Origin: Polyangia bacterium
GTDB taxonomy: Bacteria > Myxococcota_A > Polyangia > Palsa-1104 > JAEUJZ01
Length of the DNA stretch: 64,000 nucleotides
Direction: 5' to 3'
Assembly (NCBI GenBank): GCA_046351595.1
Contig: JAXLYE010000004.1
Location: 904,255-968,254 of the forward strand
The notes under the pieces were generated by a model. The model made no database searches. It saw only the letters and a program-made list of their open reading frames with translations, and was not told where the DNA came from. A program made the translations under genes and the position numbers. Below, in pieces: positions 34,049 to 57,078 of this stretch; positions within the stretch are counted from its first letter, which is position 1; each line of letters starts with the position of its first letter.

Positions 34049-35395
<1,347 letters not shown>

Positions 35396-35465
35396 GCCGA
35401 GGGGGACTCGAAGCGGCCCGCCGTCGGGTCGCTCTGCTCCGGCGCGCCGCGGGCCCAGGGATCGC

Positions 35466-35850
35466 GCCTTGCAGACCGGTAAGTCCGCGCGCGAGCCCGG
35501 GATCGCCCTCTTCCAGAGCTGTACGTGGAGCGACGGGCTCGGAAGCGGCGCCTCCCGTCTCCGAGAGGCGCGCGGCGCGGTCGGGCGCGCGGACCTTCAG
35601 GGCCGTAAGTCGCCGAGCGAGCGCTGGCGGGAGCACTTCCCCTGCCGGAAGTCGCGAGACCGGCGCGGGAAGGGCCGCTTCCAGGGCCGTAAGTCGCCGA
35701 GCGAGCGCAGGAAGGGCCGCTTTCCCTGCTGGAAGTCGCGGGACCTCGGCCGGAAGGGCCGCTTCCAGGGCCGAAAACGGCCGATGCCGCACCGGCGAGC
35801 GGACTTACGGGCCTGTAAGCCGCGGCCCCGGGTCCGGAGCGCGGATCGGG
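35466..35850. repeat. 84-bp tandem repeat array (about 3 full copies plus a degenerate flanking copy) with internal GGCCGTAAGTC / GACTTACGGGCC inverted sub-motifs
   Basis: Copies start at 35598, 35682 and 35766 with an exact 84-bp period. Substitutions are clustered rather than third-position. No plausible ORF. Confidence 0.8.
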
Positions 35851-36004
35851 GCTGAGGGAGCGTGCGCAGGCGCTCCAGCGCGCCCTGCCTCAGGTGCGAA
35901 AGAGCACAATCGGTCCCAAGATCGCACCATCTGACCGAATTTTCCGACGGAAACCAGTGTGATCCTAGTAGTGCGATCCCGCACGGCCAGACTATCCTGC
36001 CGGC

Positions 36005-37045
36005 ATGCACGAGCTCATCCACAAGGACGGCGAAGTCCGGCGCGAGCCGGGTCTACTTGAGCCTGGCGTCACCGAGCTGCCGCCGCCGCGCGGCTGGTTC
36101 TCGATCGGCAGCGTCGAGGACACCCCGGTCGGCACGGTGCAGAACCACCGCATCGCCGGCCACGACCTGGTCGCCTTCCGCGGCGCCGACGGCGTGCTGG
36201 CGGTCGCCGACGCCTTCTGCCCGCACCTCGGCGCGCACCTGGGGCACGGCGGCCGCGTCGACGGCAACGACCTACGCTGCCCGTTCCACGGCTTCTGCTT
36301 CGACAAGAGCGGCGCCTGCACGCGCACCGGCTACAACACCCGGCCCCCGCCCAAGGCGCGGCTGCGCACCTGGCCGACCATCGAGCGCCACGGCGTCTCG
36401 CTCGTCTACTACGACCCCGAGGGCGCGCCGCCGAGCTTCGAGATCCCGGACGTCTCGATGGAGGGCTGGTCGCCGCTTCTGTTCCACCACTGGCGGCTGC
36501 GCGGCCACCCGCAGGAGACGTCCGAGAACAGCGTCGACATCGGCCACTTCCCGCACATCCACAACTACAGCGAGGTGCGCGCGCTGGAGCCGGTCGTCGT
36601 CGAGGGCGCGCACCTCAGGGCGCGCTACTCGTTCCGCAAGCCGCTGCCCGGCGTCCTGGGCCGCCGCTTGGCGCTGCACAACGTCATCGAGGTGGATGTC
36701 TACGGGCTGGGCTACTCGCGGGTGGAGGTGCACGAGCAGCAGAGCGGGCTGCGCATCCGCTCGCTGGTCCTGTGCACGCCCCGCGGCGACGGGCAGATCG
36801 ATCTGCGGGCAGCGCTTTCGGTGTACGACCCGCGGCTCGACAAGGACAGCCCGGCCTGGCTGCGGGCGGCGGCGCCGCTGGTCCTGTCGAAGGCGGCCCG
36901 CCGGGCGATGCTCATGGAGTACTGCCACGACTTGGAGCAGGACTTCGTCATCTGGAAGAACAAGCGCCACCTCGCCATCCCGGCGCTGGCGCTCGGGGAC
37001 GGGCCGGTCGGCCTCTTCCGGCGGTGGGCGCGACAGTTCTACTGA
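36005..37045 (+). CDS. Rieske [2Fe-2S] non-heme-iron oxygenase alpha subunit (KshA/PAO-type)
   Basis: Rieske motif CPHLGAHL...CPFHGF (CXH-X17-CXXH). Mononuclear-iron motif ENSVDIGHFPHIH (E-x3-D-x2-H-x4-H). Confidence 0.8.
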   Translation: MHELIHKDGEVRREPGLLEPGVTELPPPRGWFSIGSVEDTPVGTVQNHRIAGHDLVAFRGADGVLAVADAFCPHLGAHLGHGGRVDGNDLRCPFHGFCFDKSGACTRTGYNTRPPPKARLRTWPTIERHGVSLVYYDPEGAPPSFEIPDVSMEGWSPLLFHHWRLRGHPQETSENSVDIGHFPHIHNYSEVRALEPVVVEGAHLRARYSFRKPLPGVLGRRLALHNVIEVDVYGLGYSRVEVHEQQSGLRIRSLVLCTPRGDGQIDLRAALSVYDPRLDKDSPAWLRAAAPLVLSKAARRAMLMEYCHDLEQDFVIWKNKRHLAIPALALGDGPVGLFRRWARQFY

Positions 37046-37098: not shown

Positions 37099-39495
<2,397 letters not shown>

Positions 39496-39587: not shown

Positions 39588-40613
39588 ATGCTGGTCCTAA
39601 TGCGCGCACCTAGCTTGCGGACACCTAGGGGAAGGGGAGGGGAGCACGCCCGGCTCGTAGCCGCGCTGGTGATGTTCTTCGTGTGGTTCTCGGGGGTTAT
39701 TCCTGGAATCGGGGGAATCGGGGGAATCGGAGGAATCGGAGGACTCTGGGGGCTCGGATGGGGCCGGGGCTCGGTCGCCTTCGCCCTGGACCGCAACTGC
39801 AACGGCATCGACAGCTCGCTCGAGGGCGTGTGCGTGGACTACGCCGGCAGCGGCAACCGCTGCGACGGCGTGGTGCGGCGGAGCTGCGACGACTTCATGG
39901 CCTCGGGGCTGGGACAGCCGGCCACGTGCTCATCGAACCAGCTGCGCGCGCCCGACCGCGACAGCGACGGCATCGGCGACGCCTGCGACAACTGCCCGGG
40001 CATCGCCAACATCGATCAGCTGGACAGCGACCAGGACAACGTCGGGGACGCCTGCGACAACTGCCCCAGCGCCAGCAACAACGACCAGCGCGACCGGGAC
40101 GGCGACCGCATGGGTGACGCCTGCGATCGCTGCCCGCTCGTGCCCTCGACGGACCAGCGCGACGCCGACGGCGACGGCGTGCCCGACCCGTGCGACAACT
40201 GCGTGCGCGTCGCCAATTCCGAGCAGTCCGACCAGGACGGCGACGGCACCGGCGACGCCTGCGACAACTGCCCGGCCATCGGCAACGGCCCGCAGACCGA
40301 CACCGATCGTGACGGCGTCGGCGACGCCTGCGACAACTGCCCGAGCGTCGCCAACCCCGGACAGGAGCCCTCGACGCTGCTCGGGCGCGACGGGCGGCCG
40401 CTCGGCAGCGCCTGCGAGTTCGCGGTGGGCGGCTGCAGCATGAGCATGGGCATGGGCAAGGGCGCGCTCGGGCCGGCCAGCTCCGCGGCCGCGGGCGGTG
40501 AGTCGACGCGCTCGGGCTGGGGCGTGCTGCTCGGCATGCTGCTGGTCACCATCGGCTGGGCCTTCAGCAGCGCGCGCCTGGTCCGCCGCTCGCGGGGCAC
40601 CGGCAAGGCGTAG
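39588..40613 (+). CDS. secreted TSP3-repeat protein with a C-terminal TM anchor
   Basis: ORF 39468..40613, with the start taken at ATG 39588 or 39600 (positively charged n-region, then [21 protein letters not shown]). About 7 TSP3 repeats ([16 protein letters not shown]...). The C-terminal anchor is [17 protein letters not shown]. Confidence 0.65.
39705..39743. repeat. 9-bp tandem repeat x4.3 (ggaatcggg) encoding [13 protein letters not shown] in the signal region of the TSP3 protein
   Basis: Read directly. Confidence 0.85.
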
Positions 40614-56478: not shown

Positions 56479-57078
56479 ATGACGAAGACAACTGCCCCAT
56501 CCAAGAAGTCCGCCAGCTCCACCTCGACCCCCAAGAAGGCCGCTGCCAAGAAGGGCGCGACCAAGAAGAAGGCCGCTGCCAAGAAGCCGGCCGCCAAGAA
56601 GACCGCGAAGGCCGGCGCCAAGAAGACCGCTGGCAAGAAGGCCGCGCCGAAGAAGACCGCGGCCAAGAAGGCCGCGCCGAAGAAGACCACGGCCAAGAAG
56701 GCCGCGCCGAAGAAGGCCGCTGGCAAGAAGGCCGCGCCGAAGAAGGCCGCTGGCAAGAAGGCCGCGCCGAAGAAGGCCGCTGGCAAGAAGGCCGCGCCGA
56801 AGAAGGCCGCTGGCAAGAAGGCCGCCGCGCCCAAGAAGGCCGCTGGCAAGAAGACCGCCGCGCCCAAGAAGGCCGCCGGCCGCAAGGCGCCCAGCACCAA
56901 GTCGGCTCCGAAGGCCGCTCCCGCGACCGAGAAGACCGGGACCGAGACCACCGCGACCGCGCCGGCCGCGACCAAGGCCCCCTCGCGCAAGTCGTCGGCC
57001 AGCAAGGCCAGCAAGAGCAGCAACGGCTCGACGAACGGCGGCGCCGGCGACTCGACGCCCCCGACCAGCGCTTCGTAG
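56479..57078 (+). CDS. histone-H1-like Lys/Ala-rich nucleoid-associated protein (AKKAAPKK repeats)
   Basis: ATG 56479 is preceded by GAAAGGGA. 199 aa, about 30% Lys and 35% Ala. Repeated KKAAGKKAAP units. Confidence 0.8.
   Translation: MTKTTAPSKKSASSTSTPKKAAAKKGATKKKAAAKKPAAKKTAKAGAKKTAGKKAAPKKTAAKKAAPKKTTAKKAAPKKAAGKKAAPKKAAGKKAAPKKAAGKKAAPKKAAGKKAAAPKKAAGKKTAAPKKAAGRKAPSTKSAPKAAPATEKTGTETTATAPAATKAPSRKSSASKASKSSNGSTNGGAGDSTPPTSAS
56641..56853. repeat. 30-bp tandem repeat (gccgcgccgaagaaggccgctggcaagaag): 4 identical copies (56701-56820) flanked by variant copies
   Basis: Read directly. Lies within the histone-like CDS. Confidence 0.9.

Follow-up and report, generated by a model that had tools for sequence, protein, structure and literature searches.

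The region analyzed here is part of the window, a term designating the whole stretch of 64,000 nucleotides of Polyangia DNA under study. The mevalonate cluster ends with hmgR, the HMG-CoA reductase gene, which is followed on the same strand by a gene encoding a Rieske [2Fe-2S] oxygenase of the KshA-like type (KshA_C). The start and stop codons of hmgR were verified (stop codon TGA at 35393–35395), and its product is 100% identical to the annotated 448-residue form P0121. The Rieske protein is a 100% match to P0001. The two genes are separated by a spacer of 609 nucleotides that holds a tandem array, located between a hairpin following hmgR and a conserved block preceding the Rieske gene (Table 1).

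Table 1. Features of the hmgR–Rieske region of the window.
Feature	Position	Strand	Basis or remark
hmgR (HMG-CoA reductase), last gene of the mevalonate cluster	34049..35395	+	Pfam PF00368, E = 1e-99
GC-rich hairpin GCGGCCCG-CCGT-CGGGTCGC	35413..35432	+	18 nt past the hmgR stop codon
Full tandem array, nine head-to-tail 42-nt units in exact register	35468..35845	+	Core spacing, autocorrelation, nhmmer, collinearity with L067
Open frame over the array, starting with TTG and ending with TGA, 128 codons, basic 14-residue repeats	35469..35855	+	Translation, GC by phase; judged spurious
Decayed unit 3 (CTCCCGTCTCCGAGAG...)	35552..35593	+	Orthologous to the L067 unit at 1595, of type B (alignment, unit table)
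First A-B dimer (copy 1 of the initial annotation, 35598–35681)	35594..35677	+	Mosaic; unit matrix, alignment
Second A-B dimer (copy 2 of the initial annotation, 35682–35765)	35678..35761	+	Best-conserved dimer, 77% identity to L067 units 1725 and 1769
Units 8 and 9, types Y and Z (third copy of the initial annotation)	35762..35845	+	54–56% identity to copies 1 and 2
Promoter-proximal conserved block 5' of the Rieske gene	35881..36004	+	90% identity to L067
Rieske [2Fe-2S]/KshA-like (KshA_C) oxygenase gene	36005..37045	+	Pfam PF00355, PF19298

The hairpin at 35413–35432 was recovered in both the minimum-free-energy and the centroid folds, and a GC-rich hairpin of differing sequence is present at the same place after hmgR in each relative. 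Comparison with shuffled sequences gave no significance for this hairpin and the terminator consensus was not matched; it may be a terminator devoid of a U-tract. A search of positions 35200–36200 revealed no sigma-70 promoter or intrinsic terminator consensus. The block bounding the array on its 3' side contains TTTCCGACGGAAA (35941–35953), GTGCGATCCCGCAC (35971–35984), and the –10-like hexamer TATCCT (35993–35998), which ends 6 nucleotides ahead of the ATG codon of the Rieske gene. The last 40 nucleotides or so of the block are invariant across six lineages. This block probably functions as a promoter giving rise to a leaderless Rieske mRNA. Since the Rieske gene has its own conserved promoter block, the array lies outside its core promoter. 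In an annotation, the Rieske oxygenase gene deserves its own conserved, probably leaderless, promoter, apart from the mevalonate operon.

The array spans 378 nucleotides. Each unit consists of a core, CTTCC-N6-G[G/T]AAG, followed by a 26-nucleotide linker. The cores start at 35468, 35510, 35552 (decayed), 35594, 35636, 35678, 35720, 35762, and 35804, all intervals being exactly 42 nucleotides, and the order of the unit types along the array is U1 U2 U3 A B A B Y Z. Every significant nhmmer profile match, in the window, in L009/L067, and in L003, was found on the hmgR strand. Two independent Logan assemblies (L001 and L002) contain the same sequence. The initial annotation had described an 84-bp tandem array with copies beginning at 35598, 35682, and 35766 and a degenerate copy at about 35466. 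The repetition is real and far beyond chance, since the autocorrelation against Markov-1 shuffles gave z = 9.4 at lag 42 and z = 10.1 at lag 84, but the true unit is 42 nucleotides long and present nine times. Tandem Repeats Finder (TRF) reported a period of 84 (35598–35773, 2.1 copies, 85% matches, score 261). The first two copies are indeed alike (84.5% identity between 35598–35681 and 35682–35765), whereas the sequence starting at 35766 shares its first 8 nucleotides exactly and is otherwise poorly related to them (Table 1). It belongs to units 8 and 9, which are orthologous to cores 33 and 76 of L003 and to cores 1812 and 1855 of L067. Repeat sequence is also present at about 35466, where it corresponds to the first two 42-nucleotide units rather than to a degenerate copy of 84 bp.

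The units of the window resemble one another at only 52–83%, and perfectly identical tracts of 27 and 22 nucleotides adjoin divergent patches within the array. The 27-mer at 35598–35624 recurs at 35682–35708. Accordingly, the 27-nucleotide head of unit 35594 is identical to that of unit 35678, while the tail of the same unit, and that of the first A-B dimer as a whole (GGCGGGAGCA), resembles the orthologous L067 unit. The clustering of substitutions had been taken to indicate that the array is non-coding. This conclusion is correct, but the argument is weak. The clusters are those of a gene-conversion mosaic. The motif GGCCGTAAGTCGC, which had been assigned to each unit, occurs in two units only (35601 and 35685). 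The inverted motif reported for the last unit, GACTTACGGGCC at 35802–35813, belongs to the core of unit 9, CTTACGGGCCTGTAAG (35804–35819), a quasi-palindrome of the ordinary type, and the orthologous unit of L009/L067 reads CTTCCAGGCGTGTAAG. The long stem proposed between 35598–35611 and 35802–35815, with 13 complementary positions out of 14, does not survive this comparison since its 3' arm is an ordinary unit core, with CTTCC instead of CTTAC in L067.

The array is present in L067 and L009, where it is collinear with that of the window and also comprises nine units. It is partly visible in L003, in which the last two units are present. Unit types A and B are common to different genomes. The period is 42 nucleotides in the window, 43 or 44 in L067, and 43 in L003, and an array with a period of 41 is present in L010 (see below). 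Because the period varies between relatives, neither the reading frame nor the helical phase is kept. The arrays of the window and L067 display an identity of 0.68–0.77 with about 12 one-nucleotide indels, compared to 0.967 for the last 600 nucleotides of hmgR and 0.89 for the Rieske gene, for which the divergence at 4-fold sites is 0.06 and 0.15, respectively. The array thus diverges faster than the 4-fold sites of the flanking genes. Between the window and L067, the identity is 0.756 for the palindrome arms, 0.667 for the loop, and 0.72 for the linker (Fisher p = 0.58), and no extra constraint on the arms was detected among orthologous units. Between the window and L003, 24 of 25 arm positions are conserved in what is a tiny sample. 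Judged from these alignments, the array is under no detectable purifying selection. L009 and L067 differ at a single position out of 629 and have the same number of units. The copy number is likewise equal in all independent samples, few as they are (window, L001, and L002 on the one hand, L009 and L067 on the other).

A sequence-unrelated array occupies the same hmgR–Rieske junction in L010. It consists of 7.9 copies (about 8 units) of 41 nucleotides, nested within periods of 82 and 165 with identities rising from 81 to 83 and 89%. No array is present in L008, even though the Rieske proteins of L008 and L010 are 91% identical. Profile cross-matches and cyclic similarity of the consensus sequences were both sought between the arrays of L010 and of the window and neither was found; the two arrays may or may not share an origin. 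Across about 128 kb of related DNA, counted without redundancy, non-coding arrays of such size were limited to the hmgR–Rieske junction, where they occur in three lineages and are built from two unrelated types of unit. The assemblies of relatives break within the arrays, and the array accounts for the interruption of short-read assemblies of related Polyangia at this junction. The hmgR lineages P0124, P0125, P0126, and P0133 were uninformative, as a convergent gene of the HEAT-repeat type extends over the hmgR stop codon and these lineages have neither the Rieske gene nor the spacer.

In the window, the array looks coding-like. The period corresponds to 14 codons, a frame is open over exactly the array, and GC content reaches 0.87–0.93 at one codon phase, the putative third position. 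This frame, the best of six, would encode a small, very basic protein made of 14-residue repeats such as FQGRKSPSERRKGR. We consider the existence of such a protein highly improbable. The codon score of the open reading frame was –0.12 bits per codon, far under the gene mean of 0.65 and lower than that of about 98% of real genes (1st percentile, –0.17). No homologue was found among 1.84 billion proteins, and gene calling on L001 and L009 returned no gene at the array. Differences between paralogous units are mostly non-synonymous. The orthologous arrays of L003 and L067 have periods of 43–44 nucleotides, frame-breaking indels of 1–2 nucleotides, and stop codons in all forward frames, and the GC phase bias is flat or gone in L067 and L010. 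In the window, this bias is the trivial consequence of repeating a unit with a length divisible by 3. These observations largely refute a coding repeat peptide. By comparison with L003 and L067, in which the frame is not kept, the array is non-coding. A non-coding repeat with a unit length that is a multiple of three can mimic a gene, displaying an open frame and a GC3-like signal, and in the present case the mimicry was exposed only by relatives.

The location of the array directly 3' of hmgR and on the same strand is compatible with a selected RNA. The units would form a row of hairpins, situated either in the 3' UTR of the mevalonate operon or in read-through transcripts, that terminates transcription or protects the 3' end of the mRNA. 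The model for such a role is provided by REP elements, which protect mRNA 3' ends in E. coli. Folds of the array are more stable than those of shuffled sequences (z = –2.1 for the + strand and –3.7 for the – strand), the stronger score being that of the antisense strand, and the L010 array behaves similarly (z = –3.5). Pairing within the core was observed in 77% of the cells for 20 units, against 73% in shuffles, and a C.U mismatch leaves pair 4 of the stem unpaired in 13 of these units. Pair 4 displays some covariation (A-U twice, G-U, and U-G), with a score of 0.147 versus 0.090 that was reached by 5 of 500 shuffles. A conserved core hairpin was rejected as a candidate, since pair counts hardly exceeded those of shuffles. 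Scanning positions 34800–36600 against Rfam gave no match (best E-values of 4.9–8.7, with 11–16 bits against gathering scores of 38–50), and, as indicated above, no terminator-like site was found. The fast divergence of the array, with indels, and its absence from L008 also argue against a selected RNA. A preprint reports REPs as 3'-UTR regulators (bioRxiv 10.64898/2026.03.23.713779). Altogether, a structured RNA, as suggested in the initial annotation, appears improbable.

The array might alternatively be a scaffold for protein binding, offering nine quasi-palindromic CTTCC-N6-GGAAG sites, about four helical turns apart and 5' of the Rieske promoter, for the recruitment or titration of a dimeric DNA-binding protein that would control the Rieske gene or insulate it from the mevalonate cluster. 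The core is the best-conserved segment among paralogous units (relative entropy of 1.56 versus 0.65–0.70), some units contain perfect 6-6-6 and 5-6-5 palindromes, and the 42-nucleotide register is exact in the window. In addition, the promoter block of the same lineages contains a TTCC/GGAA-type palindrome, TTTCCGnCGGAAA, the unrelated array of L010 is also palindrome-rich, and arrays of similar size are found nowhere else in the 128 kb. However, the core is asymmetric in the majority of the units (C/T at positions 4/13 in 13 of 20 units), the arms of orthologous units are no better conserved than the linkers, and the entire array diverges faster than 4-fold sites. With periods ranging from 41 to 44 nucleotides, successive units would present a rotating face to the binding protein. 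Moreover, L008 does without any array, and the 64-kb window contains no further exact CTTCC-N6-GGAAG site and hence no sign of a regulon. We therefore regard a scaffold of this type as unlikely.

There is, in addition, a slim chance that the hmgR–Rieske junction is selected to carry about 8–9 palindrome-rich units of 41–44 nucleotides, whatever their sequence. Such an array could serve as a landing pad for a nucleoid protein or regulator, or it could act as a transcriptional insulator, separating the mevalonate cluster from the probably leaderless Rieske gene. Selection of this kind would explain the presence of two unrelated unit types at the same junction in sister lineages, the absence of such arrays elsewhere in about 128 kb of related DNA, and the perfect 42-nucleotide register despite 20–50% divergence between units. 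If true, it would amount to an unusual structure-level constraint on bacterial intergenic DNA, which the present evidence does not favor.

We also considered whether the array is one locus of a REP/BIME, MIRU, or MITE family dispersed over the source Polyangia genome and seeded by a mobile or copy-prone element. The interruption of relatives' assemblies within the arrays is compatible with dispersal, and an analogue exists in the form of a high-copy REP-like element with a unit of exactly 42 nucleotides, found in 'delta proteobacterium' MAGs of 60% GC, where 8 kb can hold as many as three elements. However, unit HMMs run with filters off detected the unit nowhere else in the 64-kb window, nor at any other locus in 195 kb of related DNA. 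Scanning metagenome contigs with a family-specific 20-base signature identified only the orthologous locus of L067, plus one chance core in L068. A two-core pattern applied to genome contigs, a collection in which the source lineage is not represented, returned 46 loci, all of other families, the main one being the 60%-GC element. The linker of the array is unlike that of the latter family (Stouffer z = 1.6, with decoys up to 3.9). The array lacks a GTAG/CGTC tag, its orientation is uniform, the longest perfect stem per unit is 4–7 bp, and it is stably inherited and collinear in relatives. In the sequence covered by these searches, the proposal of a REP- or MITE-like element is thus not borne out, and membership of a dispersed family appears doubtful.

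An old array, collinear between lineages, diverging fast, confined to one locus in the sequence examined, and lacking the hallmarks of coding sequence, of Rfam families, and of REPs is most likely commonplace repeat DNA that evolves quickly, and not a novel functional element. We regard it as fairly probable that the array is a non-coding, locus-bound minisatellite, lodged between the post-hmgR hairpin and the Rieske promoter, which evolves by slippage and gene conversion and has no specific function. The initial annotation had envisaged a spacer and, should the repeat be unique to this locus and absent from relatives with no transcript, a neutral slippage duplication. A spacer or neutral duplication provides the best fit, but the array is old and common to at least three lineages. 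We infer that it originated by tandem duplication of a unit of about 42–43 nucleotides in a common ancestor of the lineages to which the window, L003, and L009/L067 belong. The units would later have been organized as A/B dimers and then reshaped by replication slippage or unequal exchange, combined with short-tract gene conversion. Block duplication is suggested by the nested periodicity, 42 within 84 in the window and 41 within 82 within 165, with rising identity, in L010. Arrays are gained and lost, as illustrated by L008, which has none, and its near relative L010. The 84-bp repeat would result from recent gene conversion between dimers 4-5 and 6-7 within the older array, which calls for caution, since a conspicuous repeat of this type may stem from recent conversion within part of a far older cryptic array. 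Any effect of the minisatellite would be generic. It would keep the mevalonate cluster apart from a Rieske gene that has its own promoter, and transcripts that read through may gain GC-rich hairpins from it.

Several observations do not readily fit a minisatellite. The eight intervals of the window are all exactly 42 nucleotides although the units are only 52–83% alike and relatives have periods of 43–44 nucleotides. This exact register requires several one-nucleotide changes in the same direction, which drift and partial homogenization explain only partly. The restriction of arrays of this size to one junction in about 128 kb hints at a special site. Finally, the core is the best-conserved segment among paralogues and, in the tiny sample provided by L003, nearly all arm positions are conserved.

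Comparison with known repeat classes places the array as follows. Our literature search on myxobacterial REPs or minisatellites retrieved nothing relevant. Like the REP/BIME elements of Enterobacteria and Pseudomonas, the array is made of short, GC-rich, palindromic units that are regularly spaced downstream of a coding region, between co-directional genes. REPs exceed 100 copies in a genome, and their orientation alternates within BIMEs (PMC2817692); most carry a GTAG or CGTC tag (PMC3733652). Of the array, no other copy was seen in the 64-kb window, in 195 kb of related DNA, or in the metagenome scan, and all of its units are on one strand. The 378 nucleotides contain no GTAG, no CTAC, one CGTC, and one GACG, none at a consistent position of the unit. 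In place of the stable stem-loop of a 20–40-bp palindromic unit, the array has a 5-bp core stem that is mismatched in 13 of 20 units. REP-like generic hairpin effects on 3' ends are conceivable for the array, on the basis of PMC3733652 and of the preprint bioRxiv 10.64898/2026.03.23.713779. The terminal inverted repeats and target-site duplication that bound MITEs were not found, nor were further copies in the 64-kb window and 195 kb of related DNA. In both the only flanking inverted pair (35314–35335 and 35864–35885, 77% complementary) and the only flanking direct pair (35347–35378 and 35857–35888, 75% identical), one of the arms falls within hmgR coding sequence.

The element of 60%-GC 'uncultured delta proteobacterium' MAGs has the structure AACCTAACCCCTAACCC + [CTTCCCGAGCGGGAAG GGGAACCGGATTGTTGGGAGTAACCT]n. 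It shares with the array a 42-nucleotide unit, a core of the CTTCC-N6-GGAAG type, and a head-to-tail arrangement, features that were imposed by the search pattern. It differs by its very dense dispersal, copies that are at least 90% conserved, a perfect 10-bp stem, and a leader motif. Homology between the two is unsupported since the similarity of the linker, which the pattern left unconstrained, is not significant.

MIRUs are repeats of 46–101 bp that form a family at 41 loci in Mycobacterium tuberculosis, with a copy number that varies between strains (PMC3914561). MIRU/VNTR loci and the array are both made of head-to-tail repeats of tens of bases located between co-oriented genes of a high-GC bacterium, both evolve in a slippage-type manner, and both have open frames across their units, which invite a coding interpretation. 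With its nine 42-nucleotide units, the array corresponds to the tandem intergenic units of about 40–100 bp that characterize MIRU-like elements. It differs by its occurrence at a single locus in all the sequence searched and by its constant copy number, nine units being present in both the window and L067 in a set of few samples. No sequence relationship is claimed. The array also differs from CRISPRs since its units abut, with a period of 42 nucleotides, and since the 26-nucleotide linkers are themselves repeated among units of the same type.

At the same genomic position, the array of L010 resembles that of the window in period and number of units, and it is palindrome-rich with a nested higher-order structure. 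Its unit sequence is unrelated, and its units are younger and more homogeneous (81–89%). Higher-order repeats and concerted evolution are characteristic of satellite DNA, which in eukaryotes forms arrays of kilobase to megabase size. The array of the window resembles satellite DNA in the grouping of its units into dimers, in its patchy homogenization by gene conversion or unequal exchange, and in a turnover that is faster than that of its flanks, but it does so with nine units at a single bacterial intergenic site.

The 609-nt spacer between hmgR, the last gene of the mevalonate cluster, and the downstream gene encoding a KshA-like Rieske oxygenase contains an array of nine head-to-tail units (378 nt), in which a core, CTTCC-N6-G[G/T]AAG, is followed by a 26-nt linker. 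One unit is decayed, and all core-to-core intervals are exactly 42 nt. Autocorrelation maxima were found at 42, 84, 126, and 168 nt (z relative to Markov-1 shuffles: 9.4 for lag 42, 10.1 for lag 84), and the upstream segment 35440-35597 was periodic by itself (z = 4.1, Markov-1 shuffles). The initial annotation had described three copies of an 84-bp repeat. Tandem Repeats Finder detected just 2.1 copies (85% matches) with a nested 42-nt period; copies 1 and 2 share 84.5% identity, and the block at 35766, taken for the third, is 54-56% identical to them, with the first eight bases alone in common. The motif GGCCGTAAGTCGC, thought to be present in each unit, occurs in two units only, and what was read as an inverted motif at 35802-35813 is simply the last unit's normal quasi-palindromic core. 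Base-for-base agreement with two Logan assemblies from other runs indicates that the spacer is not a misassembly.

Features of the hmgR-Rieske junction and other repeats (window coordinates unless a locus is named)
Feature	Position	Strand	Basis
hmgR	34049-35395	+	PF00368; limits from the annotated 448-aa form
Array of 42-nt units	35468-35845	+	core parsing
Unit cores	35468, 35510, 35594, 35636, 35678, 35720, 35762, 35804	+	core parsing
Decayed unit	35552	+	core parsing
84-nt period	35598-35773		Tandem Repeats Finder
6-1-6 palindrome (candidate regulator site)	35941-35953		
Invariant block	35971-36007		six lineages
Rieske/KshA-like oxygenase gene	36005-37045	+	Pfam
Asp-rich coding repeat, 99/201 nt	37564-38145	-	
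Asp-rich coding repeat, 69 nt	39953-40355	+	
Lys/Ala coding repeat, 30 nt	56530-56880	+	
41-nt array	L010 6093-6417		

The array of the window has an unexpected coding-like appearance. One frame is open over its entire length, with a translation consisting of basic 14-residue repeats, and phase-2 positions have a GC content of 0.87-0.93, versus about 0.65 in the other two phases. This bias results from the repetition of a single unit whose length is a multiple of three, and it was not seen in the arrays of the relatives L067 and L010. All six frames were scored with a codon model, for which 20 long genes of the window served as the training set. The open frame ranked best but obtained -0.12 bits per codon (real genes: mean 0.65, 1st percentile -0.17; wrong frames: mean -0.98, 95th percentile 0.11). 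Comparative data settled the question. In L003, a relative whose Rieske protein is 87% identical and whose contig begins within the array, the overlapping 130 nt contain indels of 1, 1, 2, and 1 nt and stops in all three plus-strand frames. Core spacing in L009 and L067, one organism recovered from two ENA samples, is 43, 43, 43, 43, 44, 44, 43, and 43 nt. No gene was predicted across the array by gene callers, and the 128-residue translation had no match among 1.84 billion representative proteins in an exhaustive HMMER search. Thus, the array is non-coding and a repeat peptide is rejected. The same conclusion had been reached initially from the clustering of substitutions between copies, which is explained instead by gene conversion. 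Elsewhere in the window, two neighbouring genes on opposite strands contain long tandem repeats encoding thrombospondin-type-3-like Asp-rich motifs (DxDxDGxxDxxD), and a third coding repeat (11.6 copies) specifies a PKKAAAKK-type product similar to a histone-H1-like or AlgP-like basic tail.

Loci of relatives were reached by searching from both flanking proteins. The spacers of the window and L067 are collinear in alignment, with nine units each; the order is U1 U2 U3 A B A B Y Z for the window, against X A B X' X'' A B Y Z for L067. Units cluster by type across the two genomes (GTAAG precedes TCGCCGAGCGAGCG in type A, and GGAAG precedes NCGCGAGACCGGCG in type B), indicating that both types are older than the split between the lineages. 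The unit at 35594 has a mosaic structure, with a 27-nt head exactly matching that of the unit at 35678 and a tail, GGCGGGAGCA, similar to that of the orthologous L067 unit. Another tail, GGAAGGGCCG, is common to three adjacent units. The mosaic unit and the shared tails are the footprint of short-tract gene conversion, which explains why the substitutions are clustered and why an 84-nt repeat is so conspicuous. L009, a low-coverage contig, is probably a chimeric assembly; its ends (1-400 and 2005-2090) diverge from L067 despite a single difference in the 629-nt spacer.

Comparison of the window with L067 revealed 96.7% identity over the last 600 nt of hmgR (6% divergence at 4-fold sites), 89% in the Rieske gene (15% at 4-fold sites), 90% in the promoter-proximal 124 nt, and 68-77% in the array, with about 12 one-nt indels. 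Thus, divergence in the array outpaces that of silent sites. Palindrome arms, loops, and linkers were 75.6%, 66.7%, and 72.0% identical, respectively, a difference that is not significant (Fisher p = 0.58). Judged from this alignment, constraint is not detectable in any part of the array. The mosaic divergence over 34800-37045, where the hmgR end and the Rieske gene some 600 nt beyond it differ in identity, is consistent with recombination close to the spacer.

The last ~40 nt before the Rieske ATG, GTGCGATCCCGCAC followed by CTAT.CTGC, show no variation across six lineages, in which Rieske identity falls as low as 68%; the block, GT.GTGCGATCCCGCACGG...CTAT.CTGC.G.CATG, is also found in L003, L004, L008, L009, and L010. 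A -10-like TATCCT ends 6 nt ahead of the start codon. Given this invariance and the placement of TATCCT, the Rieske gene very probably possesses a promoter of its own and yields a leaderless mRNA. A 5-4-5 palindrome, GTGCG ATCC CGCAC, lies at the expected -35/spacer place and, with the position of TATCCT, suggests a candidate operator combined with a leaderless transcript. Further upstream, ~55 nt from the ATG, the 6-1-6 palindrome TTTCCGACGGAAA has the counterpart TTTCCGTCGGAAA in L003 and L009, the centre base being changed and the symmetry kept. This candidate regulator site is absent from L008 and L010 and occurs in the same lineages as the CTTCC/GGAAG array. In each lineage, the hmgR stop is followed by a GC-rich hairpin whose stability does not exceed that of shuffled sequence.

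The junction exists only in lineages with a Rieske gene behind hmgR. Several other lineages (L014-L020, L069, and L070; hmgR 78-81% identical) have a convergent HEAT-repeat gene (627-629 aa) that overlaps the hmgR stop by 4 nt, with no Rieske gene after it, limiting the adjacency to a few lineages. L010 (with L011-L013; hmgR 83% identical) has a complete hmgR, a 683-nt spacer, and the Rieske gene. At the same position, L010 contains an array, also represented in L011-L013, of 7.9 units of 41 nt, unrelated in sequence, with nested periods of 41, 82, and 165 nt (81, 83, and 89% identity) and, in each unit, a GGGGCGCC-N6-GGCGCCCC hairpin and a TGCAC-N-GTGCA palindrome. Three Logan contigs terminate inside this array. 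The 177-nt spacer of L008 has no array, although L008 and L010 share 91% Rieske protein identity. In ~128 kb of non-redundant related DNA, non-coding arrays of such size were found at the hmgR-Rieske junction only. Either one ancestral array has changed so much that it can no longer be recognised, or arrays of this kind are tolerated at, or attracted to, the junction.

Dispersal of the array was unsupported in the window, 195 kb of related DNA, and the metagenome contigs scanned. Searches allowing mismatches did not detect the motif elsewhere in the window, and when profile HMMs for the two unit types were applied with filters off to 195 kb of high-GC sequence, the entire window among it, hmgR-Rieske junctions alone were matched. 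A 20-base family-specific signature retrieved from metagenome contigs only L067, the same locus as L009, and one chance core. A two-core pattern searched against one genome per GTDB species matched 46 loci, none belonging to the array family. The window has a GC content of 72%, and its Rieske protein is named in the source database as that of a 'Polyangia bacterium' MAG; no 72%-GC relative was present among the 46 loci, indicating that the source lineage is absent from this collection. The majority of these loci are a high-copy REP-like element of 60%-GC 'delta proteobacterium' MAGs with a unit of exactly 42 nt. Homology to the window array is not supported, as the shared features were imposed by the search pattern and the linker has no similarity to window units. 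The element (L021, L023, L024, L026, L028, L029, L036, L038, L043, L045, L046, L048, L050-L052, L055, L057, L058, L060-L062, and L064-L066; 'uncultured delta proteobacterium' MAGs MFD09286.bin.2.99, MFD10064.bin.1.24, MFD05513.bin.2.169, palsa_1089, and others) consists of a leader, AACCTAACCCCTAACCC, and 1-3 or more units, every one of which has a perfect hairpin (CCCCTTCCCG AG CGGGAAGGGG). Conservation among copies is 90% or higher, and as many as three elements occur within 8 kb.

Three functional readings were tested. For a structured RNA, fold z-scores were -2.1 and -3.7 for the plus and minus strands, respectively. The array region had no Rfam match, and pairing of the candidate 5-bp core stem barely exceeded that of shuffles (77% versus 73% of cells in 20 units), the fourth pair being a C.U mismatch in 13 of them. 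The core covariation score was equalled by 5 of 500 shuffles, a level that, according to the tool's own warning, is possible without structure. Phased binding sites are counted against by a period that differs by lineage (41, 42, or 43-44 nt), so that helical phase is not maintained, by the asymmetry of the majority core, and by the lack of further exact cores in the window. REPs are reported to occur in more than 100 copies per genome and to alternate in orientation in BIMEs (PMC2817692; PMC3733652). In contrast, the array has no GTAG/CGTC tag, its units have perfect stems of just 4-7 bp and all lie on one strand, and no further copy was found in the sequence searched; a REP-like element is not supported by these tests.

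We conclude with moderate confidence that the array is an old, locus-bound, non-coding minisatellite without sequence-specific function in dispensable DNA. Slippage or unequal exchange, together with gene conversion, would have generated and reshaped it. It separates the last gene of the mevalonate cluster from a Rieske gene that is very probably promoted independently. That the array is instead under selection appears improbable. This alternative is kept alive by three observations otherwise unaccounted for: the perfect 42-nt register in the window versus 43-44 nt in relatives, the fact that unrelated arrays recur at this one junction, and the better conservation of cores than of the remainder among paralogous units. 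The closest known kinds are MIRU-type minisatellites (units of 46-101 bp at 41 loci; PMC3914561), from which the array differs by a copy number that does not vary among the samples compared and by the absence of dispersal in the sequence searched, and REP/BIME clusters, from which it differs in the latter respect and in tags, stems, and orientation. Since it departs from both kinds in the defining features tested, the array is classed only as a bacterial intergenic tandem repeat.
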